A DNA stretch of 64,000 nt from Candidatus Omnitrophota bacterium. Lineage in GTDB: Bacteria; Omnitrophota; Gorgyraeia; Gygaellales; Profunditerraquicolaceae. A program made the position numbers and the translations under genes. The notes under the pieces are model-generated. The model had not been told where the DNA came from and did not search any database. It saw only the letters and a list, made by a program, of their open reading frames with translations. Location: the NCBI GenBank assembly GCA_003598025.1, contig QZKH01000002.1, positions 74,133-138,132 on the forward strand. Direction: 5' to 3'. This document shows, one piece after another, positions 7,168 through 58,341 of the stretch (the first letter of the stretch is position 1; every line of letters begins with the position of its first letter).

Positions 7168-7173
7168 ATCCGG

Positions 7174-8199
7174 ATGAACATAAATAATTTCAACCTTGAA
7201 GAGTTGGAGAAAGTGTTGCGCGAATGTGGTCAGCCTGTTTTTCGCGCCCGGCAGATTTTTGCCTGGGTACATAAGAGGAAAGTCTTTGATTTCGGAAAAA
7301 TGTCGGATATGCCGTCAAGCTTAAGAGAAAAACTCAAAAATAAATATTCTATTCAGGATTTAAGCATAAGGAACATAACACGGTCAAGAGACGGAACGCA
7401 AAAATACCTTTTTTCTTTGAATGATGCCAATCTTATTGAAGCGGTGAATATCCCTGCGGCAGGCAGGGTTACGGGATGCGTTTCTACGCAAGCCGGCTGC
7501 AGGTTTGCTTGTAAATTTTGCGCAAGCGGAATTCAGGGATTTGTCAGGAACCTGGAATGTTCTGAGATAATTGAGCAGATTCTTGTCCTTGACAGAGATG
7601 CTTCCGGCGGCCTCACTAACCTCGTTTTTATGGGCACAGGCGAGCCGTTAGATAATTACGATAATGTTATCAAGGCGGCAAGGATAATAAATTCGCAATA
7701 CAGCATTAATCTTGGCGCAAGGAAGATAACCATTTCAACTTCCGGTGTCATTGCCGGCATAGAGCGTCTCAGTAACGAAGGGCTGCAAATCGAACTATCG
7801 GTTTCTTTGCATGCTGCAGATGATAGGACAAGGTCAAGCCTGATGCCCATAAACAAGGTTTATCCTCTAAGTGATCTGATTAAAGCCTGCAGAAAATATA
7901 CCGAGAAAACTAACCGGCAGATAACTTTCGAATACATCCTTATTAAGGGCATTAATTCTACATTGCAGGATGCGCTTAATTTAGTTAAAGTATTAAAAGG
8001 GTTATCCACAATCAAGGTTAATCTTATAGTATCTAATATCGTAGAAGAATCCGGACTTGAGCCGGCGGGCCTGAAAGATGCCGCTGCTTTTAAAGGGTGC
8101 CTTATTAAACACGGCATAAACGTGACGCTGCGTAAGCCGCGCGGACAGGATATTGATGCTGCCTGTGGGCAATTGAGGTTGAGATATGGGGAAGGATAG
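7174..8199 (+). CDS. rlmN: dual-specificity RNA methyltransferase RlmN (radical SAM)
   Basis: 341 aa. N-terminal FRARQIFAWV, radical-SAM CRFACKFCASG, FMGTGEPLDN, and C-terminal DIDAACGQL. Confidence 0.9.
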   Translation: MNINNFNLEELEKVLRECGQPVFRARQIFAWVHKRKVFDFGKMSDMPSSLREKLKNKYSIQDLSIRNITRSRDGTQKYLFSLNDANLIEAVNIPAAGRVTGCVSTQAGCRFACKFCASGIQGFVRNLECSEIIEQILVLDRDASGGLTNLVFMGTGEPLDNYDNVIKAARIINSQYSINLGARKITISTSGVIAGIERLSNEGLQIELSVSLHAADDRTRSSLMPINKVYPLSDLIKACRKYTEKTNRQITFEYILIKGINSTLQDALNLVKVLKGLSTIKVNLIVSNIVEESGLEPAGLKDAAAFKGCLIKHGINVTLRKPRGQDIDAACGQLRLRYGEG

Positions 8200-8866
8200 T
8201 TCACTGTTCATAGTTCATAGTTCATGGATTAAGGCGGCAAATTTTATCTTGGCCTTATTTTTATTCTTTGGGATCATCGGGTGTCAGAAGAGGGATATAA
8301 AGAATATTGATTCTAAGGGCACGAATATCATTTGTTTCGGGGATAGCATAACCTTTGGTTACGGCGTTGACCCGGATAAAAGCTATCCTGCGGTTTTAGC
8401 CGGCATAACGCAGTGGCAGGTCATTAACGCAGGGGTAGATGGCGATACTTCAACCGATGGCTTAAACAGGATTAACAAAGATGTTTTAGAAAAAGACCCC
8501 TTACTTGTTGTTATTGAGTTCGGCGGTAATGATTTTCTCAAGAAAATACCAAAAACGCAAACCGCTGAAAACGTAAATAAAATGATTGATCATATACATG
8601 GACGCGGCTCAATGGTAGCGTTGTTAGATATAAGTACAGGCATTTTACTTAGCGATTACCATAAGCTTTTGAAAGACATAGCATCAGAAAGAGGCGCTAT
8701 TTTTATCCCAAAGATTTTAACAGGAATAATCACTAACCCCAGTATGAAGAGCGATTTCCTGCATCCTAATGAAAATGGTTACGCTGTTATCGCCCAACGT
8801 GTTTACCGCACAATTATCCCTTACCTGAATAGGAATTTTACTTTAAAGAGCATCGCCAGCAAATAA
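8186..8866 (+). CDS. SGNH/GDSL hydrolase lipoprotein (TesA/arylesterase-like)
   Basis: Contains ICFGDSITFGYG (block I Ser), GGNDF (block III) and a lipobox FGIIGC. GAGG sits 7 nt before ATG 8186. The N-terminal residues SSLFIVHSSW are encoded by the heptamer array at 8199-8226. Confidence 0.8.
   Translation: MGKDSSLFIVHSSWIKAANFILALFLFFGIIGCQKRDIKNIDSKGTNIICFGDSITFGYGVDPDKSYPAVLAGITQWQVINAGVDGDTSTDGLNRINKDVLEKDPLLVVIEFGGNDFLKKIPKTQTAENVNKMIDHIHGRGSMVALLDISTGILLSDYHKLLKDIASERGAIFIPKILTGIITNPSMKSDFLHPNENGYAVIAQRVYRTIIPYLNRNFTLKSIASK
8199..8226. repeat. tandem heptamer array GTTCACT GTTCATA GTTCATA GTTCATG
   Basis: Read directly from the sequence: four contiguous 7-nt units. Member of the dispersed family (see findings). 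Confidence 0.9.
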
Positions 8867-8896
8867 AAGTATCTCTTTATTTTAGCCGGTGTTTTT

Positions 8897-8905
8897 TGAT
8901 ATAAT
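8897..8905 (+). promoter_or_regulatory. candidate extended -10 promoter (TGaTATAAT) for the pilin operon
   Basis: TG at 8897-8898 and TATAAT at 8900-8905, about 25 nt upstream of the 8930 start. No good -35 hexamer. Confidence 0.35.
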
Positions 8906-8929
8906 AATATTTAAGCATATACTTTTATA

Positions 8930-9409
8930 GTGATGAGAAATATCCTTCACACGCCAATCCCTGAGAAAAGATATCGGGCCAGGGCTTTTGCCCTGGTAGA
9001 GACGCTTCTTGCCACGGCGATAATGGTGTTTGGGCTTTGCGCGATACTGATAACCTACATATCCTGCCTTTTACTTATTACTACCGCTAAGAACATTAAT
9101 ATAGCTACTAATGCTACGTTAAGCCTGATGGAGGGGATACGCAGCAGCGATTTTACACAGATATCCGCTAATTATAACGGATTAAATTTTGTTTTAAACG
9201 ATATACCTTTAAGCAGGGGAGTAGTTTATGTTGATGATACAAATGCCGAGCTTTTACAGGTGGATATAAGCGTGTGTTGGCAGCAGGGTAACAGGGTAAT
9301 CGGAGAAGATGCAAATTTAAACGGTATGCTTGATCCGGGAGAAGATGTAAATGGTAACGGGATCATTGATTCCACGGTAAAGGCGACAACTTTAATAGCC
9401 AACAGGTGA
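8930..9409 (+). CDS. type IV pilin-like minor pilin (PilV-like)
   Basis: Contains RA-FALVETLLATAIMVFGL, a prepilin-type N-terminal motif with the conserved Glu at +5 (Ala instead of Gly at -1). The C-terminal DANLNGMLDPGEDVNGNGIID looks like Ca-binding loops. Confidence 0.6.
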   Translation: MMRNILHTPIPEKRYRARAFALVETLLATAIMVFGLCAILITYISCLLLITTAKNINIATNATLSLMEGIRSSDFTQISANYNGLNFVLNDIPLSRGVVYVDDTNAELLQVDISVCWQQGNRVIGEDANLNGMLDPGEDVNGNGIIDSTVKATTLIANR

Positions 9410-9410
9410 T

Positions 9411-9932
9411 ATGAAAAGGGGCCTTACACTAATAGAAATACTTGTTGCTTCAAGTATCCTGATATTATTAATACTTGCTGTGTTTCAGGTAATGGAAGCA
9501 GGAAGGAGCGCAGTATTTACCGGGGATTTAACAGTGCAATTGCGCCAGGAGATAATCAGAACTTTTATGAGGATGGAAAGGGAGTTAAAAGAGGCACGCC
9601 CCGCGCTGGTGAGTTTAACAAGCGGCAATAGTAGTTCGACTATCACATTCAGTGTCCCTCAGGATATTAATGGCGACGGGACGGTTTTGGATGATTTTGG
9701 CGCTATTGAATGGTCTGCCGTTATTACATATGCTTTAAACGGTTCTAATCAAATAATCAGGACTTCATCCGGTGTTACTAATGTGCTTGCAAACGATATT
9801 GTCAGTTTACAGTTCAGCAGGCCGCTTTCCCCTGTTAATATCTTACAGATTGATATGACGGCGCGCAAGATTTCTTCTTCTGGCAGGCAGTTACAGGACG
9901 CCGGGCAAATGGTAATAGAAATGAGGAATTGA
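9411..9932 (+). CDS. prepilin-type N-terminal cleavage/methylation domain protein (PilW-like)
   Basis: N-terminus MKRG-LTLIEILVASSIL is the canonical G/xTLxE pilin leader. Contains a DINGDGTVLDD loop. Confidence 0.7.
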   Translation: MKRGLTLIEILVASSILILLILAVFQVMEAGRSAVFTGDLTVQLRQEIIRTFMRMERELKEARPALVSLTSGNSSSTITFSVPQDINGDGTVLDDFGAIEWSAVITYALNGSNQIIRTSSGVTNVLANDIVSLQFSRPLSPVNILQIDMTARKISSSGRQLQDAGQMVIEMRN

Positions 9933-11742: not shown

Positions 11743-11825
11743 TGCCGAGAGAGGGAGTTGAACCCTCACGAGGTTGCCCTCACCAGTTTTTGAGACTGGC
11801 GTGTATGCCATTCCACCACCTCGGC
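11743..11825 (-). tRNA. tRNA-Leu (anticodon CAA), type II with long variable arm
   Basis: Folded by hand. Acceptor GCCGAGG/TCTCGGC; anticodon arm CCAGT-CTCAAAA-ACTGG; variable stem GAGG/CCTC; T arm GAGGG-TTCAACT-CCCTC. CCA is not encoded. Confidence 0.9.
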
Positions 11826-12271: not shown

Positions 12272-12344
<73 letters not shown>

Positions 12345-12740: not shown

Positions 12741-13583
12741 ATGATATTAGGGGTCCATGTTTCTGCAGCAGGCAATATTTATGATTCGCTTGAGCGTGCC
12801 TATGGGTTAGGCTGTAATACTATGCAGATATTTTCGCGCAATCCTCAAAGATGGCGCGATAATTTTTTAGGGGAGCACGATTTCGATGAATTTCGTAAGG
12901 CTAAGCAAAAATTTAAAATAAACCCCGTCTTTATCCATATACCTTATTTGATAAACCTGGCTTCTCCTGAGCCGGGGCTTTACCGGGCTTCAATCCGCGC
13001 ATATATTGAAGATATTGTTGAAGCAGATAAACTAGGCGCTGATTTTATCGTAACGCATATGGGCAGCCATAAGAAAACATCTGAAAGCCTCGGGATTAAA
13101 AGATTGACGGCTGCCCTGAATAAAATTGCCTTAGCAACAAAAGATTCCAAAGTCGGGATCCTGCTTGAAAATACATCCGGTTCCGGAAGCTGGCTGGGTT
13201 ATGATTTTACGCACCACAAGCGGGTTTTTGATAATTTGAAGGACAGGCAGCGTTTCGGCATATGCCTTGATACCGCCCATGCTTTTTCTGCGGGATATGA
13301 TATATCGAACAAGCCGGGGCTGGATGCGATGCTTGGGGAAATAGACAGGCTGGTTGGTTTAGGTTTGATCAGGTTGATACATCTGAATGACTCAGCTTCA
13401 AGACTTGGGCAGCACTTTGATAAGCACCAGCATATAGGGAAAGGCTATATCGGCATCCCGGGTATGAAAAATATCATTAACCATAAAGGGCTTAAAGATA
13501 AGCCCTTTATATTAGAAACCCCCAAAGAGTATCAATCTTCCGATATTGATAACTTGGAAACAGTGAGGAAACTGAGAAAATGA
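12741..13583 (+). CDS. nfo: endonuclease IV (AP endonuclease family 2)
   Basis: MILGVHVSAAG is a typical Nfo N-terminus. Contains ILLENTSG, HLNDS and HQHIGKGYIG. The track start at 12702 coincides with the -35 box, so ATG 12741 (or 12728) is preferred. Confidence 0.88.
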   Translation: MILGVHVSAAGNIYDSLERAYGLGCNTMQIFSRNPQRWRDNFLGEHDFDEFRKAKQKFKINPVFIHIPYLINLASPEPGLYRASIRAYIEDIVEADKLGADFIVTHMGSHKKTSESLGIKRLTAALNKIALATKDSKVGILLENTSGSGSWLGYDFTHHKRVFDNLKDRQRFGICLDTAHAFSAGYDISNKPGLDAMLGEIDRLVGLGLIRLIHLNDSASRLGQHFDKHQHIGKGYIGIPGMKNIINHKGLKDKPFILETPKEYQSSDIDNLETVRKLRK

Positions 13584-13987
13584 ACAATGAAAAAAAATTT
13601 AAGATCATGATTGTAGACGATGAGCCTGATGTTATTGAATCCTTGAGTTCCAGGATCGCCAGGGAAGGATACGATGTTTCTTCTGCTTATGACGGACAGG
13701 AGGCATTAGATAAAATGGTAAATGACCTGCCCGATATAGTGCTGTTAGACCTGATGATGCCTAAGCTCAACGGCTTTGACGTGCTTAAGGAGATACGAAA
13801 AAAATATAAAGATAAATGGATACCGGTAATAATCGTGAGTGCCAAGACAGAGCTTGAATCGGTAAAACAATGCTACTCGCTTGAGGCAGACCATTATTTG
13901 ACAAAACCATGTACAATTGAAAAAATATTGCAGGGCATAGAGACGATGATCTCATTGATACCGCTAAGAAGGAACGATAACAAGTAA
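13580..13987 (+). CDS. single-domain response regulator (CheY-like receiver)
   Basis: Contains [24 protein letters not shown] (phospho-acceptor Asp) and PVIIVSAK. No output domain. Confidence 0.85.
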
Positions 13988-38325: not shown

Positions 38326-39702
38326 ATGTTCAAAAAACTATTAACACTAATTTTTATTTCAACCAGTTTGGGTTTTATATCTTCAAGGCTAGGTTTGAAT
38401 TACCATCAGGCCTTGTCCATAGGCATATTCTCAGCATCTATCCTTGGGACCTTGTTATTCTGGGATTTCCGCCTGGCTTTTGCATTTTGGGGCGTGTCAA
38501 TATTAATGCTGACTAAGACCATTGACCTAGAGAATATGATTAAATTCTCTTCATTGGAAGTAATACTCTTTTTAGTAGGTATGATGGTGTTAGTAGGCCT
38601 CTTAAAAGATTCAGGATTCTTTGCCTGGATAGTGCAGCTTATATTGCGTGTCAGGAATATGACTGCGCAGCGGTTTGTAATCATGATCACGCTTATTTCC
38701 GCGATACTTTCTGCTATGACATCAGAGGTTGTATCCATAATATTCATGGTTGCCGCTATTCTTGAAATCTGCGATTATTTTGAAGTTGACCCTGTGCCAT
38801 TTGTTATCATATCGGTTTTAGCTACCAATATCGGAAGCGCTTCTACTGTCTTGGGTAATCCCATAGGTATATTGATCGCCTCAAAAGCAGGTCTTACATT
38901 CGAAGATTTTATAATCAAGGCCTTTCCTCTTGCGATGGTGTGCTTATTTTTCACAATATTTTTGGTCTTATTTTGGTATAGGGACTCGATTAAAAGACTC
39001 AATAAGCACATAAAGGAGATGGGTGCTAATGAAATCCTTATAAGGCTTATTTCTGTCCCACCGGAAAAAGATTTAAAGACAGGGTTGATTATTTTCGGGG
39101 TAACTCTGTTTTTCATTGCCATGCACCACAGGATTGAGTTGCTCTTCAGCCTGGAACATAATACCGTACTTTTAATGATGCCGTTGCTTTCGAGCGGCGG
39201 GGTAATGATGTGGAAATACAATAAAGCCAGGGATTTTATAGAGAAGGATGTTGAGTGGTGGACACTTCTGTTTTTTATGATGCTCTTTGCTCAGGCAGGG
39301 ACACTTAAGTATACCGGAGCCACGGATATTATAGCAGGCAAGCTTGCCCATATCGCCGGGCAGAATCATTTGTCTCTCATTGGTATAGTCTTATGGGTTT
39401 CAGCGATAGGCTCAAGCATCCTGGATAATGTCGTCTTAGTCGCAGCTTTCATACCTGTAATACAGAGTTTTCAGGAGATAAACTTACAGCCTTTATGGTG
39501 GGCGTTACTGTTCGGAGGGTGCCTGGGAGGCAATATTACAATCGTTGGCTCTACAGCCAATATAGTTGCTTTAGGCATCCTTGAGAAAGAACAGAATATT
39601 AGAATGTCTTTCTTGAAGTGGTTCTGGATCGGTCTTTCCGTTGGGTTGATTACGGTAGGGATAGTCTGGGTAGCTTTAATATTTTTACCGTTTTATAATT
39701 AA
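38326..39702 (+). CDS. ArsB/NhaD superfamily permease (CitMHS/SLC13-like)
   Basis: 458 aa, polytopic. Contains ATNIGSASTVLGNPIGILIA and GGNITIVGSTANIV, the duplicated hairpin motifs of this superfamily. Confidence 0.7.
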   Translation: MFKKLLTLIFISTSLGFISSRLGLNYHQALSIGIFSASILGTLLFWDFRLAFAFWGVSILMLTKTIDLENMIKFSSLEVILFLVGMMVLVGLLKDSGFFAWIVQLILRVRNMTAQRFVIMITLISAILSAMTSEVVSIIFMVAAILEICDYFEVDPVPFVIISVLATNIGSASTVLGNPIGILIASKAGLTFEDFIIKAFPLAMVCLFFTIFLVLFWYRDSIKRLNKHIKEMGANEILIRLISVPPEKDLKTGLIIFGVTLFFIAMHHRIELLFSLEHNTVLLMMPLLSSGGVMMWKYNKARDFIEKDVEWWTLLFFMMLFAQAGTLKYTGATDIIAGKLAHIAGQNHLSLIGIVLWVSAIGSSILDNVVLVAAFIPVIQSFQEINLQPLWWALLFGGCLGGNITIVGSTANIVALGILEKEQNIRMSFLKWFWIGLSVGLITVGIVWVALIFLPFYN

Positions 39703-49595: not shown

Positions 49596-50867
49596 ATGGA
49601 TCCAAGATTAATTTCAATAACGGTTTTCATTCTAGCGTATCTATTTTTCGTATTATTACCTAACAAAAGGTCGTTGACTGCGGCTGTAGGGGCTTCTTTG
49701 CTTATTTTAACCGGAGTAATCCCTTTAAATAAGGTAATTACTTCAATAAACTGGAATGTCATGGGTATCTTTGTCGGCATGCTTTTTGTAGCAGACATAT
49801 TCATGAAAAGCAGGGTACCGGCTTTTATCGCAGAGGTTTTTGTGAATAATTCCAAGAACACGGCCTGGGCTATATTGTTTATATGTGCGCTGGCTGGTTT
49901 TATTTCCGCATTCGTAGAGAACGTTGCTACGGTCCTGATAATTGCTCCGATTGCGCTATCTTTAGCGAGAAAATTAAAAATAAGCCCTGTAAACATGATG
50001 ATTGCTATAGCTGTCTCTAGCAACCTGCAGGGCACAGCTACACTTATAGGAGATCCTCCCAGTATGTTGCTGGCCGGTTTTGCGAAGATGAACTTTATGG
50101 ACTTCATAATCTATAAAGGCAAGCCAGGTATATTTTTTGCTGTAGAATTAGGAGGCATACTCTCTTTTATAGTACTGTATATGTTCTTCAGAAAACATAA
50201 GGAGAGAGTGAAGTTAGTTTCTGTAGAAAAAATAAATTCCTGGATCCCTACAATTATGCTGGTAATTTTAATAATGGCTCTTGCAATATCTTCTTTCTGG
50301 GATACCGGGTTTTCTTATCTTGCCGGTATAATCTGTATGATATTCGGCATTCTTTCTCTTATCTGGGATAAGTTTGTTAACAAAGCCGCTCTATTTCAAT
50401 CAATAAAAAGCGTGGATTGGGATACTACAATTTTTTTAATAGGGATTTTTATTATAATCGGCAGCCTTACATTGACCGGCTGGATCGATACCATATCAAC
50501 ATCATTGTCTTCAATAGTAGGGGATAGGCTTTTCTTTGGGTATACCATTATAGTAGTTTTTTCCGTTATAATCTCCGGTTTTGTCGATAATGTTCCTTTT
50601 CTGGCTACAATGCTGCCTGTAGCTATATCTATGTCCAGTAAACTTAACATAGACCCGTCATTATTTCTCTTCGGCCTGCTTATAGGCGCTAGCTTAGGCG
50701 GAAACATTACCCCGATCGGGGCATCCGCTAATATCGTAGCATGCGGGCTTCTTAAGAAGGAAGGTTATAAAGTGACCTTCGGGGATTTCATGAAAATAGG
50801 CCTGCCTTTTACTATAGCTGCGGTTTTCGCCGGGTACCTATTCATCTGGTTTGTTTGGGGGAAGTAA
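49596..50867 (+). CDS. ArsB/NhaD superfamily permease (paralogue of 38326..39702)
   Basis: 423 aa. Contains SSNLQGTATLIGDPPSMLLA and GGNITPIGASANIV. Confidence 0.7.
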   Translation: MDPRLISITVFILAYLFFVLLPNKRSLTAAVGASLLILTGVIPLNKVITSINWNVMGIFVGMLFVADIFMKSRVPAFIAEVFVNNSKNTAWAILFICALAGFISAFVENVATVLIIAPIALSLARKLKISPVNMMIAIAVSSNLQGTATLIGDPPSMLLAGFAKMNFMDFIIYKGKPGIFFAVELGGILSFIVLYMFFRKHKERVKLVSVEKINSWIPTIMLVILIMALAISSFWDTGFSYLAGIICMIFGILSLIWDKFVNKAALFQSIKSVDWDTTIFLIGIFIIIGSLTLTGWIDTISTSLSSIVGDRLFFGYTIIVVFSVIISGFVDNVPFLATMLPVAISMSSKLNIDPSLFLFGLLIGASLGGNITPIGASANIVACGLLKKEGYKVTFGDFMKIGLPFTIAAVFAGYLFIWFVWGK

Positions 50868-50876
50868 AGATTTTTC

Positions 50877-50906
50877 TTGACATAGGGTAGGGGGGTATGG
50901 TATATT
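50877..50906 (+). promoter_or_regulatory. promoter TTGACA-18-TATATT with a G-tract operator-like spacer (candidate CsoR site)
   Basis: TTGACA at 50877-50882 and TATATT at 50901-50906. The spacer TAGGGTAGGGGGGTATGG contains GGTA-type half sites flanking a G6 tract. Confidence 0.45.
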
Positions 50907-50928
50907 TGTACAAGGAAGGAGGTACCCT

Positions 50929-51213
50929 ATGAAACAGATCACCACTCATGAAGAACAACTCGCCTTTTTAAGGAAGATCGAAGGCCAGATACGCGGTATA
51001 CAGAAGATGATCCAGGATAAGAGGTACTGCGTAGATATAATCACTCAAATCCATTCTATCATTGGCGCGCTATACAGGGTGGAGGATGAAATATTAAGAA
51101 AACACCTTGATGGCTGCGTTGTCAGCGCTCTTAAAGGCAAATCAGATTCAGACAAACAAAAGAAAATAGAAGAGATCATGTCATTGATAACTAAATTCAG
51201 GCGGAGCCCCTGA
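50929..51213 (+). CDS. csoR: CsoR/RcnR-family metal-sensing repressor
   Basis: 94 aa. Contains RKIEGQIRGIQKMIQDKRYCVDIITQIHSIIGAL. Cys and His residues at the positions of the Cu-ligand motif. Confidence 0.85.
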   Translation: MKQITTHEEQLAFLRKIEGQIRGIQKMIQDKRYCVDIITQIHSIIGALYRVEDEILRKHLDGCVVSALKGKSDSDKQKKIEEIMSLITKFRRSP

Positions 51214-51217
51214 TATT

Positions 51218-52477
51218 ATGTTGAAGAAGTTATTGATTATAATATTGCTTAGCATATTTATTCTTAACCATCCGGTTTTTGCACAGGGGATATTGTCCCT
51301 GGGGCCGCTTATCGAAGAAGCAAGGGAGAATAACCCTGGTATTCTGGCTGCCAAAAAGCGCTGGGAGGCTGCTTTGGCCCGGGTGCCTCAGGCAAAGTCT
51401 TTACAGGACCCGACTATTGGTATAGCTTTTGAGAAGATTCCGCGCGGAACGTTGAAGTTGAACAAAGTCATGGCAGATGACAGGATGCTTTCACTGCAGC
51501 AATTCTTCCCTTTTTTCGGTAAATTAACTTTGAAAGGCAAGATTGCCATGGTTGAATCTCAGATGTTTGCTGCCGAATATAAGAATAAGGAATTAGAAAT
51601 CATAAACCTTCTCAAAAATGCATATTACGATCTATTCATGAAGCAAAAAGAAATAGAATTAAGCCGCCAGAGCCTCAGGTTATTGCAAAATATCGCCAAT
51701 GTCGCCGAGGCAGGTTATACGGTTGGAGGCATCCCTCAAGAAGAGGTGTATAAAATAAATTCTGAAATAGCCCGTCTTAGTACCAATATTAAAAATTTAG
51801 ACCAGGAAAAATCTGCCAAACAGACATTAATTAATTCCCTTTTAAATAGAGACCCTGAAATGCCATTAGGAGACCCTGATTTAAAAGAAGATGTCTTATT
51901 TGATAAGGATGTCAGGGCTTTATACCAGGCTACTCTTCTTAACCAGCCAGAGCTGGTTATCTTTTCTTATTCTATAGAGAAAAACAAATATTCTAAATCA
52001 TTAGCCAAAAGAAGTTTTTTCCCTGATTTTATGGCAAGTATTGTCCAGCGGGGGATCACTTCCGGGATGCTCGGGCCGTGGGATTTGATGCTGGCTTTTA
52101 ATGTGCCACTATGGTTTTGGACGAAACAGCGTTATGAGATTAAGGAGGCCATTGCCAATTTAGAAGAGGCAGAAGCCGCATATAAGGCAATGCAGAATAA
52201 GGCATTCAGCGAAGTAAAAGACCTGGCTGCGAAGATAGAGGTCTCCAAGAACAAAATCACATTGAATAAAACAAGCTTGATCCCGATGCTGGAAGCCTCC
52301 ATTGAATCTTCGCTGGCGGCTTTTAATTCAGGCAAAGGTGATTTTATGATGCTTTTGGATAGCCAGAGAATGCTTATTGAAACAAAAATGGACTATTATA
52401 GAGCGCTGGTTGAATATAATATGAATCTAGCGGACTTAGAAAGAACTGTAGGCATTCAGCTACAAGAGGAGAAATAA
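51218..52477 (+). CDS. TolC-family outer membrane efflux protein (CusC/CzcC-like)
   Basis: 419 aa with signal peptide and two OEP repeats. Confidence 0.8.
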   Translation: MLKKLLIIILLSIFILNHPVFAQGILSLGPLIEEARENNPGILAAKKRWEAALARVPQAKSLQDPTIGIAFEKIPRGTLKLNKVMADDRMLSLQQFFPFFGKLTLKGKIAMVESQMFAAEYKNKELEIINLLKNAYYDLFMKQKEIELSRQSLRLLQNIANVAEAGYTVGGIPQEEVYKINSEIARLSTNIKNLDQEKSAKQTLINSLLNRDPEMPLGDPDLKEDVLFDKDVRALYQATLLNQPELVIFSYSIEKNKYSKSLAKRSFFPDFMASIVQRGITSGMLGPWDLMLAFNVPLWFWTKQRYEIKEAIANLEEAEAAYKAMQNKAFSEVKDLAAKIEVSKNKITLNKTSLIPMLEASIESSLAAFNSGKGDFMMLLDSQRMLIETKMDYYRALVEYNMNLADLERTVGIQLQEEK

Positions 52478-52478
52478 A

Positions 52479-53663
52479 ATGAATAGAAAGATGCTAGTTA
52501 TTATTTTATCGTTGATTTTTGTTACTGCATACCAGATAGGTTCCCCGGCTTATTCTTTTGCCCAGCACCAAGGCCATACCGACGGAACTTCTTCTAAAAA
52601 AGGCAAGGGTCAGGAACCAGCGCCTATGAAAATATATCGCTGCCCGATGCATCCTCAAGTTGTATCTGATAAGCCTGGTAAATGCCCTATCTGCGGTATG
52701 GTTTTATCTGAGGTTATTGAAAGCGATACAAAAGCCGTAGAAACATCCGGAGAAGGCCCGGTCATTAAAATAAAGGAAAGCCAGGCTGAGCTTATTGGTG
52801 TTGTGACAGAACCTATTGTATCGGTTGGTTTGATGCGCATGATACCTGCGGTTGCCAAAATCGCTTTTGACCCGGAACTCTATCAGGCCCAGGCAGAATT
52901 TATACAGGCCAATAAGACTAAAGATGCCGTAAGCCTGAGTAGCTCTTCCGAAATCAGAGATAGGCTAGAAGCCCTGGTGCTTGCCGCTACTTCCAAGCTT
53001 AAGCTCATGGGTTTATCAGATTCGCAAATTGAAGAACTAAGAAATGAAGAAGAGCCCGATAGTGTTCTTTTGATGTCAAAAGGCCAGAGCTCTTATACTT
53101 GGGCATACTTGACTATTTATGAGCATGATTTAGGTTCAGTAAAACAAGGGGATCATGTTGTATTGAAAGCAATTGCTTATCCGGCAGAAGAGTTTAATGG
53201 CAAGATAGTCGCAATTGATCCTGTCTTAGATACGAATACGCGAAGCGTTCGTGCCCGTGTGCAGGTGGATAATCCGGAAGCAAAACTGAAACCCAATATG
53301 TATGCCGATGCTTTTATCCATGTTGACTTAGGCCAGAGGCTTGCTGTTCCAAGGGAAGCGGTATTGGATACAGGCGTAAGAAAAATTGTGTATGTTGAAT
53401 TAGGCAAAGGGCAATTCAGGCCTCAAGAGGTACAGACAGAGTCAGAAGCAATTGCATTAATTGACGGTAAAGAACGTAAATTTTATCCGGTGTTGTCCGG
53501 GCTTAATGAGAATGATATTGTGGTGACAACCGGAAATTTCTTGATTGACTCGCAAAGCCAGCTTACCGGAGGAATGTCTGCCTTGTGGGGAGCATCAACA
53601 GAGATAAAGCAGGATCAGGTTGAGGGTGTTGCAGGAGAGGTAAAAACGCAACATCGCCATTGA
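52479..53663 (+). CDS. RND efflux periplasmic adaptor (CusB/CzcB-like) with N-terminal heavy-metal-binding domain
   Basis: Contains YRCPMHPQVVSDKPGKCPICGMVL followed by HlyD-like barrel-sandwich and beta-barrel domains. Confidence 0.85.
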   Translation: MNRKMLVIILSLIFVTAYQIGSPAYSFAQHQGHTDGTSSKKGKGQEPAPMKIYRCPMHPQVVSDKPGKCPICGMVLSEVIESDTKAVETSGEGPVIKIKESQAELIGVVTEPIVSVGLMRMIPAVAKIAFDPELYQAQAEFIQANKTKDAVSLSSSSEIRDRLEALVLAATSKLKLMGLSDSQIEELRNEEEPDSVLLMSKGQSSYTWAYLTIYEHDLGSVKQGDHVVLKAIAYPAEEFNGKIVAIDPVLDTNTRSVRARVQVDNPEAKLKPNMYADAFIHVDLGQRLAVPREAVLDTGVRKIVYVELGKGQFRPQEVQTESEAIALIDGKERKFYPVLSGLNENDIVVTTGNFLIDSQSQLTGGMSALWGASTEIKQDQVEGVAGEVKTQHRH

Positions 53664-53673
53664 AAGGCAAGAT

Positions 53674-56600
53674 ATGATAAATAAAATAATAAATTATTGT
53701 TTAAAGACCCCGTTTGTGGTTTTTGTTGCCTATTCGGCAGTGTTTTTTTGGGGTTTATGGGCAATTACTAATATACCGGTTGATGCGATACCGGATATCG
53801 GCGAGAAACAGGTAATAATATATACCGAATGGCCCGGCCGTTCTGCAAAAGATGTAGAAGATCAGGTTACGTATCCGCTTTCCGTATCCCTACGCGGTAT
53901 CCCCGGAGTAAAGACCATACGCGCATCAAGCGCTTTTGGCTTTTCTGAAGTATACCTTATTTTTAATGACAATATAGATTACTATTGGGCCCGCTCCCGA
54001 GTTTTAGAGAAATTAAATCTTGCCTCCAGCCGCCTGCCAATGGGCGTTATGCCTGTTTTAGGTCCTGATGCCACAGGTTTGGGGCAGATTTTCTGGTATA
54101 CCGTTGAGGGTAAAGGCTACGGTATTGACCAGTTGAGGAGCATTCAGGATTGGTTTATCCGCTATCAGCTTAATTCAGTTCAGGGTGTATCTGAAGTTGC
54201 TTCTATCGGAGGGTTCGTTAAGCAGTACCAGATCGATATCGACCCTAACAAGATGCTGGCTTACAACATTCATTTAGGCCAGATAATGGAAGCGGTTAAA
54301 AAATCGAATATAGATGTAGGAGCTAAGGTCGTTGAAAATAATGCTATGGAATATATTATCCGCGGTTTAGGGTTTATAAAATCCCTGGAGGACATCGAGA
54401 ACATTGCGGTAGGCGAAATAAATGGCGTGCCTATTTATATCAAGAATATTGCCAATGTTCAGCTTGGGCCTGAATTCCGAAGAGGAGCGCTGGATAAAGA
54501 TGGCCAAGAGGCAGTCGGTGGCGTGGTCATTATGCGTTACGGGGAAAACGCAATGCAGGTTATCCATCGTGTAAAAGAAGCCATAAAGGAACTGCAGAAA
54601 GGTTTACCCGAAGGAGTAAAAATAGTTCCCTTTTACGACCGGACAGACCTGATCCATCGCACTATAGGGACTCTTCGCGAAGCCCTCATCTTGGAAATTA
54701 TTATTACCATGGCAGTAGTCGTGCCGTTCCTGGCTCATATCTGGGCAGGCGTAATCATTAGCATTACTTTGCCGTTCTCGGTTTTGATAGCATTTATTGC
54801 GATGTACTATTTAAAAGTAGATTCTAATATTACATCTTTATCCGGTATTGCGATTGCGATAGGAACACTGGTAGATATGGGTATTGTTATGACCGAAAAT
54901 ATTTACCGGCGTTTAATCGAATATAGCGATGATATTAAGAAAGGGGTAAAGTCCAGGCTGGATGTAGTATTTAAGGCATCTTCAGAGGTAGGTTCTGCGG
55001 TTATCACGGCAATACTTACTACGGTAGTATCATTCCTTGCTGTATTTGCACTCGAAGCCCAGGAAGGAAAACTCTTTAAACCACTTGCATATACTAAGAC
55101 TTTTACCCTTTTGGCCTCTGTTACAGTTGCACTTACCTTGACTCCGGTCCTTTGCATGTATCTTCTAAAAGGAAGATTGCGGGCCCCGGAGGAAAACATA
55201 TTGGTGAAGATACTACAGAGGAACTATGAGAAAGTCTTGCGTTGGTGTTTGAATCACAGGGTTACTTTCTTACTCATACCGGCAGTTTTACTTATAACCA
55301 GCATACCTTTTATATTGCCAAAAGATATTACTTCTTTGGCTGTTTTCCTGCTTATTGTTGTAGCGTTACTGGTATTTATTCTGCCTAAGAAGACAAAATC
55401 AGTAATCGCCTCTGTTTTAGTCGTGGTTATAAGCCTGGGCTGGTTCTGGTTTTCACCTCGCATAGGGCGTGAGTTCATGCCTCCATTTGATGAGGGTTCG
55501 ATCCTGTTCATGCCGGTAATGCATCCTTCAGTATCCTTGACCGAAGCAATCCGCGTAATCCAGATACAGGACAAGATAATAAAATCATTCCCGGAGGTAG
55601 AATTGGTAGTAGGCAAGGTCGGCCGGGCAGAATCTGCGACTGACCCTGCTCCGGTTGAAATGTTTGAGACCATAATTACTCTAAAGCCGAAAAAAGATTG
55701 GCGTAAGGGTATGACAAAGGAAAAACTTATCCGCCAGATGGATGCTGCCTTACAAATCCCCGGGGTATCGAATATCTGGACACAGCCTATTGTTAACCGT
55801 ATTGATATGTTAGCTACGGGTATCAGGACCTCTGTAGGTGTAAAGGTTTTTGGGCCTGACCTCAAAAAAATTGAGGAGATTGCAACAGAGATAGAGAAAG
55901 TCCTCAGGGCTGTACCTGGAGCCGTAGATTTATATTCAGAAAAGATTGTAGGTAAGCCCTATATAGAGTTTAAAATCAAAAGAGAGCAATTAGCCCGTTA
56001 TGGCATATCCATACGCGAAGTTCAGGATGTTATAGAGATGGCCATAGGCGGTGAAAATCTCACTACTACTGTTGAAGGTAGGGAGCGTTACCCTGTTCGC
56101 GTACGCTATGCCAGGGAGCTGAGAGATAATATAGATGCCTTAAGAAGGGTCCTGGTATCAACAAAAGATGGTGCTCAAATCCCGATCAGCCAGCTGGTTG
56201 ATATATATTTTGTTACCGGTCCGGCAATGATTAATTCGGAGAACGGGCTTTTGCGCGCCTATGTCTTGATGAATGTCCGCGGCAAAGATATGGTTACATT
56301 TGTCGAAGATGCGTCTAAAATCGTATCTGAAAAAGTAAAATTGCCTGCAGGGTATTTTATTCAATGGTCAGGCCAATTTGAAAATCAAGTCCGGGCCAAG
56401 AAAAAGATAGCCGTGCTTTTACCGGTCAGCCTGTTAATAAACTTTATGCTGATTTATATGAATTTCCGTTCCATAATAAAGTCGGTATTTATTTTTACGG
56501 CTGTTCCTGTGACATTGGCCGGTGGGATATGGCTTTTGGCATTTTCAGGATTTAATTTTTCAGTTGCTGTATGGGTAGGTTTTATCGCACTATTCGGGAT

Positions 56601-56940
56601 CGCTGTTGACGATGGAGTATTGATTACAACGTATCTTGACGACGTATTTGGAGAGAGGAAAGATAAGATAAAAAACAGGCAGGACGTTGTTGAGGCGACT
56701 GTCCATGCAGGTTTAGGTAGGATCAGGCCGGCGTTTCTCACAACTATGACTACTATTGTTGCGCTTCTACCGATTATGTTCTTAAAAGGAACAGGCGCGG
56801 AAGTTATGCAGCCCATGGCTATACCTTCCATAGGCGGGATGGTTTTTGAGATGGTTACCTGGTTTATAGTTCCGGTTTTATATTCATGGCGCGAAGAAAG
56901 AAAGATAGCGAAAGCAAAACCTTTACTATCTAAACCTTAA
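53674..56940 (+). CDS. cusA: heavy-metal efflux RND pump, CusA/CzcA family
   Basis: 1088 aa, 12-TM RND architecture. N-terminus IINYCLKTPFVVF...IPVDAIPDIGEKQVII is typical of the HME-RND subfamily. Confidence 0.93.
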   Translation: MINKIINYCLKTPFVVFVAYSAVFFWGLWAITNIPVDAIPDIGEKQVIIYTEWPGRSAKDVEDQVTYPLSVSLRGIPGVKTIRASSAFGFSEVYLIFNDNIDYYWARSRVLEKLNLASSRLPMGVMPVLGPDATGLGQIFWYTVEGKGYGIDQLRSIQDWFIRYQLNSVQGVSEVASIGGFVKQYQIDIDPNKMLAYNIHLGQIMEAVKKSNIDVGAKVVENNAMEYIIRGLGFIKSLEDIENIAVGEINGVPIYIKNIANVQLGPEFRRGALDKDGQEAVGGVVIMRYGENAMQVIHRVKEAIKELQKGLPEGVKIVPFYDRTDLIHRTIGTLREALILEIIITMAVVVPFLAHIWAGVIISITLPFSVLIAFIAMYYLKVDSNITSLSGIAIAIGTLVDMGIVMTENIYRRLIEYSDDIKKGVKSRLDVVFKASSEVGSAVITAILTTVVSFLAVFALEAQEGKLFKPLAYTKTFTLLASVTVALTLTPVLCMYLLKGRLRAPEENILVKILQRNYEKVLRWCLNHRVTFLLIPAVLLITSIPFILPKDITSLAVFLLIVVALLVFILPKKTKSVIASVLVVVISLGWFWFSPRIGREFMPPFDEGSILFMPVMHPSVSLTEAIRVIQIQDKIIKSFPEVELVVGKVGRAESATDPAPVEMFETIITLKPKKDWRKGMTKEKLIRQMDAALQIPGVSNIWTQPIVNRIDMLATGIRTSVGVKVFGPDLKKIEEIATEIEKVLRAVPGAVDLYSEKIVGKPYIEFKIKREQLARYGISIREVQDVIEMAIGGENLTTTVEGRERYPVRVRYARELRDNIDALRRVLVSTKDGAQIPISQLVDIYFVTGPAMINSENGLLRAYVLMNVRGKDMVTFVEDASKIVSEKVKLPAGYFIQWSGQFENQVRAKKKIAVLLPVSLLINFMLIYMNFRSIIKSVFIFTAVPVTLAGGIWLLAFSGFNFSVAVWVGFIALFGIAVDDGVLITTYLDDVFGERKDKIKNRQDVVEATVHAGLGRIRPAFLTTMTTIVALLPIMFLKGTGAEVMQPMAIPSIGGMVFEMVTWFIVPVLYSWREERKIAKAKPLLSKP

Positions 56941-56952
56941 AAAGGAGGTAAG

Positions 56953-57324
56953 ATGTATATGGCAAGGATTTATTTTCTAAGTTTAGCTGTAGTTTTTGCA
57001 TCGGTTTCTTTGGTATTTGCACAAATGCACGAGCACGCAGATATGCATAAGAATATGATGGAGCAAGCAGAACAAAGTAAGGCCGAGAATGTGGGAAATA
57101 AGATTTGCCCTGTAAGCGGGGAGAAGATAATTGAAGAATTCAAAGCAACATATGAATACAAGGGTAAGATTTACAATTTTTGTTGCGCTTCTTGCGTTGA
57201 AGAATTCAAAAAAGACCCGGAAAAATATATTAAAAAGATAGAGGAAGAGGAAAAAGCAGCTCTCAAAGAAGAGAACAAAGTTACAAAGCCGGATTCAGAC
57301 ACCCATAAGGGACACCAACACTAA
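56953..57324 (+). CDS. YHS/TRASH-domain metal-binding protein
   Basis: Contains CPVSGEKI...YEYKGKIYNFCCASCVEEFKKDPEKY, a signal peptide and a His-rich C-terminus. Confidence 0.75.
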   Translation: MYMARIYFLSLAVVFASVSLVFAQMHEHADMHKNMMEQAEQSKAENVGNKICPVSGEKIIEEFKATYEYKGKIYNFCCASCVEEFKKDPEKYIKKIEEEEKAALKEENKVTKPDSDTHKGHQH

Positions 57325-57336
57325 AAACACAGTTAT

Positions 57337-58056
57337 ATGGCTAAGAGAATCAGTTTGTTAAATAAATCCATACTTCTAAGCATTATTATGCTATTAGTTG
57401 TTACTGTCATTTCTTTTGCTAAAGATCAGTCTGGGCTTAAAAAGGAGATCTATTCAAAATTAAAGTGTTGTAATTGCGCTGTATCTTTTGAAAAGTGCAC
57501 TTGCGCTGAGGCTAATGAAATAAAACCATATGCAGACAAGCTTATTGCGGATGGATTTAGGCCAGAAGAGATTTTTTATAGGTTAGCTAAACGTTTCTCG
57601 TTGAAGATAATTACTGACCCTCAAATAAAACAACAGGTTGAAAAAAGGCTGATTAAAGAAATGAAAGGTATGTCCCCCAAGATAGCTGTCGAAAATGGGA
57701 CAGTTAATTTAGGGGCTATCAGTAAAAAGAAAAATAAACTTTATAAAAGCAGCTACAAGCTGGTCAATGAAGGCAATGCTGCTTTAAGAATCTCAAACAT
57801 AAAGACATCATGTCCTTGCGTAAGTGTTGCGCTTAAATCAAGAGATTCAGTCACTCCCTATTTTGGAGTGGGGGGTTCAGCAGTAGACTTAGGTGTAACC
57901 ATTGAGCCGGGAAGCTCTGCAGATTTGATGATAATATTTGATTTGACACATCCGAGCGTAAGCAGGGGCAAGCTCATAAGATATATTTTTATAAACAGTA
58001 ACGACCCTTTAACTCCTCAGTTTGAATTGGAATTAACCGCAGATATAATCAAATAG
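57337..58056 (+). CDS. DUF1573-domain protein with N-terminal CcmH/NrfF-like Cys motif
   Basis: N-terminal domain: LKCCNCAVSFEKCTCAEANEIKPYADKLIADGFRPEEIFYRLAKRF. C-terminal domain: YKLVNEGNAALRISNIKTSCPCVSV (DUF1573 signature). Confidence 0.55.
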   Translation: MAKRISLLNKSILLSIIMLLVVTVISFAKDQSGLKKEIYSKLKCCNCAVSFEKCTCAEANEIKPYADKLIADGFRPEEIFYRLAKRFSLKIITDPQIKQQVEKRLIKEMKGMSPKIAVENGTVNLGAISKKKNKLYKSSYKLVNEGNAALRISNIKTSCPCVSVALKSRDSVTPYFGVGGSAVDLGVTIEPGSSADLMIIFDLTHPSVSRGKLIRYIFINSNDPLTPQFELELTADIIK

Positions 58057-58121
58057 TATATTTGTTAAAGCATAGCCTATTTAAAAACAAAATAGGACCG
58101 TAAAAAAGATAAATTTTTTTC

Positions 58122-58150
58122 TTGACAAATGATACCATTATGGTATCATT
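58122..58150 (+). promoter_or_regulatory. promoter TTGACA-16-(TGg)TATCAT overlapped by a perfect 11-1-11 palindrome (candidate Rrf2 operator)
   Basis: TTGACA at 58122-58127 and TATCAT at 58144-58149. AATGATACCAT-T-ATGGTATCATT at 58128-58150. Confidence 0.6.
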
Positions 58151-58169
58151 TAACGAGAAAGGAGGTAAT

Positions 58170-58247
58170 ATGGATATAACTATCAGGTATATGCTTCGGC
58201 CGGTAGCTCACTGCAAAGAAGGTTGTAGTATTTTGTCCTGGGTATGA
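58170..58247 (+). CDS. 25-aa micro-ORF with strong SD (function unknown; may only be a leader)
   Basis: AAAGGAGGTAAT precedes ATG 58170. Hand translation MDITIRYMLRPVAHCKEGCSILSWV, ending at TGA 58245-58247. Confidence 0.2.
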   Translation: MDITIRYMLRPVAHCKEGCSILSWV

Positions 58248-58341
58248 CGTTAAATCGCCCGGCTCGCATTTGCCTGCCGGATGACACTCGGGATCAATCT
58301 GAGTGCTGCCCATTTAACCCCTGATAAATAAAAAGGAAAAT

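Follow-up and report, generated by a model that had tools for sequence, protein, structure and literature searches.

The 64,000-nucleotide stretch of Candidatus Omnitrophota DNA analyzed here (contig QZKH01000002.1, called the window below) carries, at 50877-58056, an operon-like run of six genes, all on the + strand, which we read as a CsoR-derepressed Cu(I)/Ag(I) exporter working with thiol-based periplasmic copper carriers that would replace CusF, a reading to which we give a probability of roughly 60%. Its parts are graded separately: it is very likely that the system is a CsoR-controlled Cu(I)/Ag(I) exporter, it is probable that its two accessory proteins, a secreted YHS protein and a secreted CcmH-like/DUF1573 protein, act in copper handling, and the specific division of labor that we propose between these two is tentative.

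The run starts from a sigma-70-type promoter, recognized by promoter scan and cross-locus conservation, with a putative CsoR operator in its spacer (50877-50906). It then encodes CsoR, a predicted Cu(I)-sensing repressor of the CsoR/RcnR family (50929-51213, 94 residues); an outer-membrane factor of the TolC/OEP family (51218-52477, 419 residues); a CusB-like periplasmic adaptor of the membrane fusion protein type (52479-53663, 394 residues); a CusA-type heavy-metal pump of the resistance-nodulation-division (RND) family (53674-56940, 1088 residues); the secreted YHS/TRASH-type protein (56953-57324, 123 residues); and the secreted CcmH-like/DUF1573 two-domain protein (57337-58056, 239 residues). 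A first-pass annotation had given exactly this order with matching coordinates, and the motifs that it quoted (CPMHP...CPICG, LKCCNC..C.C, SCPC, and a His-rich tail) are all present. The intergenic gaps measure 4, 1, 10, 12, and 12 nucleotides, the next strong promoter past that of csoR lies at 58122, which is 3' of the last gene, and, judged from the sequence, the anatomy from csoR to the CcmH-like/DUF1573 gene is that of a predicted single operon. Export is predicted for the outer-membrane factor, the adaptor, and both accessory proteins, since each begins with a hydrophobic signal peptide whose last residues are (V/S)FA, with Q or K next in the chain. When the domains proposed at first were checked with hidden Markov models, the CsoR, OEP, HlyD/HMBD, RND, YHS, and DUF1573 assignments held and the CcmH assignment did not.

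The regulator matches PF02583, the DUF156 four-helix bundle, with 87.8 bits against a cut-off of 22.8 (E = 6.6e-25), and its best PDB matches are all CsoR proteins, from Geobacillus thermodenitrificans (4m1p, 8e-17) and Streptomyces lividans. At the positions of the Cys-His-Cys Cu(I) ligands of both of these proteins it has Y33-C34, H59, and C63, and with the PF02583 match and this Cu(I)-CsoR ligand set the csoR identity is borne out. The NCBIfam models for CsoR/RicR, RcnR, and FrmR all remain under cut-off for this protein.

The csoR promoter reads TTGACA-18-TATATT with an extended -10 (TG) and reached 11/12 in the promoter scan. The whole 30-nucleotide element is TTGACATAGGGTAGGGGGGTATGGTATATT, with TAGGGTAGGGGGGTATGG inside its spacer, and the putative operator core, ATAGGGTAGGGGGGTATGGTATA, spans 50882-50904. 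The window has a single copy of the element, where 0 would be expected by chance, and each related locus has one. Over 20 distinct loci its mean pairwise identity is 0.92, against 0.35 and 0.36 for the 40-nucleotide flanks, a statistic that is partly circular because these loci were searched for with the element itself, allowing up to 5 substitutions; an independent, csoR-anchored extraction found the block CTTGACATAGGGTAGGGGGGTATGGTATACT, unchanged or nearly so, in 21 of 24 regions upstream of csoR. Loci that share the block have CsoR proteins 61-76% identical and surrounding intergenic DNA that cannot be aligned. A promoter spacer would hardly stay this conserved without a bound protein, and that the spacer is a CsoR operator is strongly supported as a sequence-based proposal: its ATAGGGTAGGGGGGTAT is a G/C-tract pseudo-palindrome overlapping the repressor's own promoter, and the variants ATACCATAGGGGGGTAT and ATACCCTAGGGGGGTAT (in L095 and L100; L numbers are the labels of the loci collected in this analysis) are closely similar to the experimentally bound CsoR boxes of Staphylococcus aureus, ATACCtataGGGGGTAC of copA and ATACCctggGTGGGTAT (PMC5947656, PMC10233261). 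The first-pass remark that a G6 tract flanked by GGTA repeats resembles CsoR operators was, by the conservation of the 30 nucleotides and the likeness to these boxes, correct.

In comparison with the CsoR-copZA regulons of Firmicutes and Actinobacteria (Bacillus subtilis, S. aureus, and Mycobacterium tuberculosis), the repressor family and its Cu(I) ligand set are the same, and so is a G-tract operator flanked by ATA..TAT that overlaps the promoter, whereas the target here is an RND efflux operon and not a P1B-ATPase with CopZ. The half-sites differ as well: variation in the element is concentrated at positions 9-11, where most loci have GGG but L020, L095, and L100 have CCA or CCC, so that in most Omnitrophota the canonical half-site is the right one only and the left is usually ATAGGG instead of ATACC(C), without a true palindrome, with ATACC in the three loci just named. 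A side observation is that L005 has two csoR genes (3080-3414 and 13503-13831), each with its own conserved copy of the promoter-operator.

The pump scores 1059 bits with the CusA/CzcA model TIGR00914 (cut-off 701) and E = 1.6e-232 with ACR_tran, and against solved structures it scores 875 bits with Escherichia coli CusA and 558 bits with the zinc pump ZneA. In E. coli numbering, M573, M623, M672, E625, A399, and the proton-relay residue D405 are kept in the window pump and in 10 Omnitrophota orthologues, and the heavy-metal RND pump claimed at first is thus CusA-like both by score and by its intact Met triad and E625. The transmembrane Met pairs (M410/M501, M403/M486, M391/M1009, M271/M755) are partly kept, with Met at M1009 and M410 only and F, N, T, L, L, and C at the other positions; this relay is known to vary among CusA homologues.

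The adaptor (HlyD_D23, 4.9e-29) begins with a His-rich stretch and an HMBD (PF19335, 2.5e-12), C55-P-M-H-P...C70-P-I-C73-G-M, which bears out the N-terminal metal-binding domain that had been proposed for it. Over 370 residues it shares 24% identity with E. coli CusB, and it reaches 81 bits in the NCBIfam CusB model against a cut-off of 390. When YDPMYP...DKPGKSPFMDM of CusB is aligned with YRCPMHP...DKPGKCPICGM of the window adaptor, the Cu(I) ligands M49 and M66 of CusB fall on Met and M64 falls on an HMBD Cys (M/C/M), which indicates a homologous metal site that is, however, enriched in Cys and His. The outer-membrane factor shows two OEP repeats (PF02321, 2.3e-39) and stays below the cut-offs of the NodT (59.7 bits against 210) and TolC subfamily models, and its signal peptide, MLKKLLIIILLSIFILNHPVFA-QG, ending in VFA, has no lipobox Cys, so it does not classify as a CusC-type lipoprotein.

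With E. coli CusF as the tblastn query, no match at or below E = 2 was obtained in the window and none at or below 0.01 in more than 100 loci. Common to the present system and CusCFBA of E. coli are the tripartite arrangement of outer-membrane factor, adaptor, and heavy-metal RND pump, the CusA residues Met573/623/672, E625, and D405, an N-terminal adaptor site homologous to CusB M49/M64/M66, and the presence of a small secreted accessory in the operon. In contrast, here there is no CusF, regulation is by a cytoplasmic CsoR instead of the periplasm-sensing CusRS two-component system, the lipobox Cys of CusC is missing from the outer-membrane factor, a Cys/His HMBD makes up the adaptor site, the Met relay is only partly kept, and the accessories are a Cys-ligand YHS protein and a CcmH/DUF1573 protein, whereas CusF is a Met/His/Trp OB-fold.

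The first of these accessories, a secreted YHS protein with a His-rich tail as initially described, scores 40.6 bits with PF04945 (cut-off 30.3) and has a signal peptide ending in VFA-Q, a Met/His-rich mature N-terminus (QMHEHADMHKNMM), and the C-terminus HKGHQH. In 29 sequences its Cys residues C52, C77, C78, and C81 never vary; the conserved block reads VGNKICPVSGEKI...KATYEY.GKIYNFCCA.C..EFKKDPEKY, and the N- and C-terminal tails are variable and Met/His-rich. The core of its AlphaFold model is confident, and the best structural match, the YHS-bearing subunit of phenol hydroxylase, confirms a YHS/TRASH-like fold and adds little more. At least 783 homologues are detectable. In our survey, 80 metagenome loci with this family were found, 59 of them with upstream sequence and 40 with enough downstream sequence. 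An RND pump, P2-ATPase, CitMHS, DUF1622, or CsoR gene lies upstream on the same strand in 53 of the 59, the RND pump being the immediate neighbor in 27, and this linkage makes the YHS protein a regular component of Cus-type operons. Copper-binding TRASH/YHS proteins, CopM among them, are known as partners of CopA in archaea (PMC5328820); like CopM, the present protein is a small treble-clef module with conserved Cys encoded beside a copper exporter, but CopM is cytoplasmic and partners CopA, whereas the YHS protein here is secreted, has Met/His-rich tails, and would partner an RND pump.

The second accessory combines two domains behind a signal peptide that ends in FA followed by K; an alternative TTG start at 57355 gives 233 residues, and the public record (P0001) begins there, 6 residues downstream of the start of the 239-residue version, for which an exact-sequence look-up gave no match. 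Residues ~114-238 form a DUF1573 Ig-like domain with S-C159-P-C161, in agreement by profile match (PF07610, 34.2 bits, cut-off 26.1), fold, and motif. Residues ~33-112 form a Cys-rich domain of CcmH fold (C44, C45, C47, C54, and C56), for which the hidden Markov model alone fails (PF03918, 12.6 bits against a gathering cut-off of 25, E = 0.082), and no CcmH chain was matched when PDB sequences were searched with a profile of the full family. The CcmH relationship is revealed only by fold search, through the three-helix CcmH fold, and by transitive search; the AlphaFold model was built from a 73-sequence alignment, with a predicted local distance difference test score of 89.6. Against 1.84 billion representative proteins, the N-domain profile retrieved just 89 clusters, and among 55 distant clusters 33 match Pfam CcmH (best 3e-26) and 33 match DUF1573, from which it follows that the N-domain is a divergent member of the CcmH superfamily and that the CcmH+DUF1573 fusion is a wider family. 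The original claim of a CcmH/NrfF-like domain joined to DUF1573 is in this way upheld for DUF1573 and, by fold and transitive search, for CcmH, and fails for the Pfam CcmH model.

There are 73 close homologues of this protein, about 236 residues long and mostly without a fusion partner, and the 20 relatives in reference genomes are all from Omnitrophota. C159 and C161 (S-C-x-C) are invariant in 73/73, and C47, C54, and C56 are kept in every homologue covering those positions. C44 and C45 are present in 60/70, with D/N and K/R/P, respectively, in the others, so that L-K-C44-C-x-C47, the CxxC, is found in 60/70 and its first Cys is replaced by D or N in 10/70. This pattern makes C-x6-C-x-C plus C-x-C the family signature, and not the CxxC of CcmH; the LKCCNC...C.C motif pointed out at first is present in the window protein, and its CcmH-type CxxC is not a conserved feature. 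CCxC and CxC motifs are well-known thiolate ligands of Cu(I), as in Cox17, CCS, and metallothioneins. Compared with CcmH, NrfF, and CycL, the protein has the same Cys loop between the first two helices of the domain and an L-(K/R)-C-x-x-C-like motif in 60/70 members, but it lies below the Pfam cut-off, has the extra invariant C54 and C56, is fused to a CxC DUF1573 Ig-like domain, lacks Ccm/haem-lyase neighbors, and is linked to csoR in two phyla. Among 10 loci with annotated gene lists, none shows a CcmF, CcmI, CcmE, Nrf, or cytochrome gene. Reviews of prokaryotic selenoproteins contain DUF1573 proteins with a selenocysteine U-G-C and YHS proteins with the selenocysteine variant G-x-U (PMC9312934, PMC13188914), which suggests that these Cys positions are chemically active in both families.

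Of 21 distinct related Omnitrophota loci with the CcmH/DUF1573 gene, 17 repeat the gene order of the window: the pump is also present in 17/21, YHS lies upstream in 18/21, and csoR heads the cluster wherever the contig extends far enough. This recurrence, together with the promoter element in 21/24 csoR upstream regions, makes the arrangement more than chance. In the YHS survey, the CcmH/DUF1573 gene follows YHS in 18 of the 40 loci with enough downstream sequence.

The csoR link extends to a second phylum. The distant CcmH/DUF1573 proteins come mostly from Patescibacteria, and both of their domains align with those of the Omnitrophota proteins (28-36% identity, E 5e-19 to 3e-33). A csoR-family gene that keeps the Y-C...H-x3-C fingerprint stands 1-3 genes from CcmH/DUF1573 in 6/6 independent Patescibacteria loci, and none of these six loci has an RND pump, which indicates that the CsoR link is older and more general than the pump link. 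Their module further comprises an unannotated Cys-rich protein, additional DUF1573 proteins, CcdA/DsbD_TM-like membrane proteins with P-C motifs, thioredoxin/Redoxin, DsbA, cupredoxins, HMA-type (CopA) ATPases, and CutA1, and the reductant-supply chain among these points to thiol-redox chemistry. As for the unannotated protein, it has 225-296 residues, lies directly upstream of CcmH/DUF1573 in 5/6 loci (L107 5252-5968, L109 5211-5984, L111 5302-5979, L114 5065-5955, and L115 5165-5992), and follows csoR in four. The two copies scanned with Pfam (L107 and L114) matched no model, and the protein shows the motif C.YCCG...ACGC.HS.MMRGLAAYLIKNH and ends in MVGGC or MVGRC.

How the parts would work together can be proposed as follows. 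Without copper, CsoR would sit on ATAGGGTAGGGGGGTAT between the -35 and the -10 and block RNA polymerase, and cytoplasmic Cu(I), bound at C34/H59/C63, would take CsoR off the DNA and allow expression of the whole operon, csoR included. The pump would then take Cu(I)/Ag(I) at its periplasmic three-Met site and expel it through the adaptor and the outer-membrane channel. The YHS protein would be a mobile Cu(I) carrier bringing periplasmic copper to the Cys/Met HMBD of the adaptor and from there to the pump, the job of CusF in E. coli, and the CcmH-like/DUF1573 protein would be its thiol partner, holding Cu(I) on C-x6-C-x-C and C-x-C and keeping the Cys sites of the pathway reduced. We assign the carrier role to YHS because it accompanies the pump more constantly, is small, and has four invariant Cys and Met/His-rich tails suited to capture; the Cu(I)-binding, thiol-maintaining role goes to CcmH/DUF1573 because of its fold, its reductant-supplying neighbors in Patescibacteria, and its optional presence (18/40). 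The first-pass suggestion that the two proteins act as chaperones or redox partners in place of CusF is thereby given a specific form that we infer, as we do copper induction and the direction of the hand-off. Cys-based rather than Met-only periplasmic sites would be workable if the host is an anaerobe.

Several points weigh against this exporter-with-carriers reading. CsoR senses the cytoplasm and Cus clears the periplasm, and with no CopA in the 64-kb window such control is out of the ordinary. Of 40 YHS-bearing operons, 22 lack the CcmH/DUF1573 gene, so that this gene cannot be essential for pump function, and it occurs without an RND pump in L003, L009, L012, L023, and all Patescibacteria loci. 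A CcdA-like supplier of reductant was not found in the window, and the YHS model is moderately confident at best outside its core. Furthermore, the DUF1573-rhodanese, DoxX, YHS-ArsP_1, methyltransferase, and ArsB-like neighbors in related loci could point to sulfur or arsenic chemistry instead.

A broader proposal, rather doubtful in our judgment, is that the CcmH-like/DUF1573 fusions define an unrecognized CsoR-regulated extracytoplasmic copper thiol pathway of Omnitrophota and Patescibacteria. It would re-use a relay of the cytochrome-maturation type, from a CcdA/DsbD-like protein through a thioredoxin-like protein to the CcmH-like domain, with Cu(I) held, reduced, or delivered via C-x6-C-x-C and C-x-C, and the recipients would be the RND pump, via the secreted YHS carrier, or a CuA-type cupredoxin.

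The main rival, which we find unlikely, holds that the CcmH-like/DUF1573 protein, perhaps with YHS, forms an envelope thiol-repair or reductase module of the Scs/DsbC-CueP kind that only shares the CsoR regulon with the pump, acting as a copper-induced disulfide reductase or isomerase, or as a Cu(I)-sequestering thiol protein, that shields the periplasm from copper-catalyzed mis-oxidation. CcmH is indeed a thiol-disulfide oxidoreductase fold, the CxxC is kept in 60/70 homologues, and the Patescibacteria gene stands with CcdA/DsbD_TM-like, Trx/Redoxin, and DsbA genes and no RND pump. In L012, a Trx gene and a Trx-CcdA-like fusion surround the CcmH/DUF1573 gene; this fusion is found in L012 only among the loci checked for open reading frames of about 399 residues, and such frames near several other loci, considered as a shared CcdA-like partner, were discarded as unrelated (HcyBio, hydrolase, aminotransferase). 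Moreover, copper-induced Scs thiol oxidoreductases exist, and the Cu(I) affinity of ScsC is subpicomolar (PMC10907172, PMC8900818). However, the universal Cys residues of the family are C-x6-C-x-C and C-x-C rather than CxxC and look more like Cu(I)-thiolate sites, neither the window nor most Omnitrophota loci yielded a reductant supplier, and in Omnitrophota the gene is tightly placed behind pump and YHS. The likeness to CueP/Scs of Salmonella is a functional analogy only, of copper-induced periplasmic Cys proteins with Cu(I) binding and thiol reduction: there is no kinship of sequence or fold between the CcmH three-helix and Ig-like DUF1573 domains here and the thioredoxin and CueP folds there, and in Salmonella CueP takes the place of the Cus system (PMC8966772, PMC10907172), whereas the present accessories accompany a Cus-type pump rather than replace one.

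Cupredoxins occur next to the CcmH/DUF1573 gene, or fused to the C-terminus of its product, with the CuA pattern H...C-x3-C-x3-H-x2-M or the set H...C...H...M in fused and stand-alone copies. The fusions are seen in P0070, P0071, L015, L016, L017, L019, and L022, and stand-alone COX2-like cupredoxins adjoin the gene in L004, L005, L095/L100, and the Patescibacteria loci. On these rests the improbable alternative that the CcmH-like reductase and the DUF1573 domain, as Cu(I) donor, load a CuA-type cupredoxin for maturation or as a copper sink, in the manner of Sco and PCuAC serving cytochrome oxidase, the window version being a remnant without its client. Against it, the window has no cupredoxin gene and yet an intact and conserved CcmH-like/DUF1573 protein, most family members (~236 residues) are unfused, and none of the loci seen has a terminal oxidase or N2O-reductase context.

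It is very improbable that the system is not one for copper at all, with a CstR-like persulfide or RcnR-like Ni/Co sensor, a divalent-metal pump, or an ordinary cytochrome c maturation CcmH, for, although the rhodanese, DoxX, ArsP-like, and ArsB-like neighbors, the sub-threshold NCBIfam scores of the regulator, and a Patescibacteria homologue labeled "CcmH/NrfF" by one source speak in its favor, HMA-type CopA and cupredoxins occur in related loci, and each version was rejected: the sensors by the Cu(I)-type Cys-His-Cys fingerprint with its preceding Tyr, the divalent-metal pump by the intact CusA Met triad and a CusA score far above that for ZneA, and the maturation factor by neighborhoods whose lists hold no ccmF, ccmI, ccmE, or cytochrome genes.

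Returning to the gene content of the clusters, the window operon is the minimal version, and recurrent extras elsewhere are a P2-type ATPase with DUF1622, a CitMHS/ArsB-like permease, DUF1573-rhodanese, DoxX, a YHS-ArsP_1 permease, an HMA-bearing CopA-type ATPase, a COX2-like cupredoxin, and a methyltransferase. A search of the 64-kb window for CopA, a cupredoxin, a CcdA/DsbD_TM-like membrane protein, a P2-ATPase, and DoxX found none. A further amendment to the first-pass annotation is that the CitMHS/ArsB-like permease directly upstream of the csoR promoter (49596-50867, + strand, 423 residues; Pfam CitMHS 6.1e-69, ArsB 4.5e-17) is part of the conserved gene set: orthologues with 67-72% identity lie between pump and YHS in L015, L016, L019, L022, L069, L097, L104, and others, and such a permease is the gene directly upstream of YHS in 13/59 metagenome loci. 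The window copy is CitMHS/ArsB/MamN-like and has a 28%-identical paralogue at ~38407-39687.

The P2-type ATPase (Cation_ATPase_N, Cation_ATPase_C), an unexpected ATPase type in a copper operon and absent from the window, stands between pump and YHS in L002, L007 (for example, at 6470-9500), L013, L016, L017, L019, L021, L022, L067, and L104. The next open reading frame after it encodes a 108-residue DUF1622 membrane protein in L007 (scanned) and in L067 and L104 (by tblastn), and most of the other loci with this ATPase have an unscanned frame of 108-111 residues at that position. The DUF1573-rhodanese gene is often found between YHS and CcmH/DUF1573 (L003 924-2156, L006 6744-7928, L013 5690-6886, L069 11440-12531, and L102 10669-11745), and the YHS-ArsP_1 permease fusions and DoxX come after it; these three hint at sulfur-transfer or thiol chemistry in the fuller clusters.

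Downstream of the operon, from 58342 to ~64000 (10988-20702 of L001), the window holds genes of redox and nitrosative stress functions, which place the copper operon in a stress-defense neighborhood: rrf2, a hybrid-cluster protein, ferredoxin, an HD protein, NifU, a flavodiiron protein, a cation diffusion facilitator metal exporter, rubredoxin, rubrerythrin, an extracytoplasmic function sigma factor, rhodanese, AhpC, and desulfoferrodoxin. The hybrid-cluster protein, flavodiiron protein, rubrerythrin, and desulfoferrodoxin suggest an anaerobic lifestyle of the host. Ahead of rrf2 lies a second strong promoter (58115-58152), TTGACA-16-TATCAT, whose spacer and -10 region contain the perfect palindrome TGATACCAT/ATGGTATCA, an architecture that mirrors that of the csoR promoter. 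Five loci (the window, L006, L097, L102, and L067) have its 38-nucleotide block, ATTTTTTTCTTGACAnATGATACnAnTATGGTATCATT, without any change ahead of rrf2, and this block probably serves Rrf2, the regulator of the rrf2-hcp cluster, as auto-operator. Between this promoter and rrf2, a small open reading frame (58171-58248, + strand) with a good ribosome-binding site encodes the 25 residues MDITIRYMLRPVAHCKEGCSILSWV; L097 shares it with six synonymous third-position changes, and L006, L102, and L067 lack it. That these changes are synonymous suggests a translated Cys-containing micro-protein or leader. An Rfam scan of the window matched two tRNAs only, at 11743-11825 and 12272-12344 (minus strand).

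CsoR repressors, HMBD adaptors, and CusA-type pumps are already well known, and the value of these findings is therefore incremental, not conceptual. The literature that we searched contains no description of secreted YHS and CcmH-like/DUF1573 proteins as regular members of such operons, nor of the coupling of CcmH-like/DUF1573 to csoR across phyla or of a near-invariant promoter-operator of this kind. The exceptionally conserved 30-nucleotide promoter-operator could serve to trace the CsoR regulon through uncultivated phyla, and a testable copper function is now proposed for two widespread families, the secreted YHS proteins and the CcmH-like/DUF1573 fusions, the latter with hundreds of homologues in Omnitrophota and Patescibacteria. 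The findings suggest that Cys ligands serve periplasmic copper trafficking in probable anaerobes where E. coli uses Met, and the wider thiol pathway, if true, would be the Cys-based counterpart, in apparently anaerobic bacteria, of the Met-based CusF/PCuAC chemistry of aerobes.

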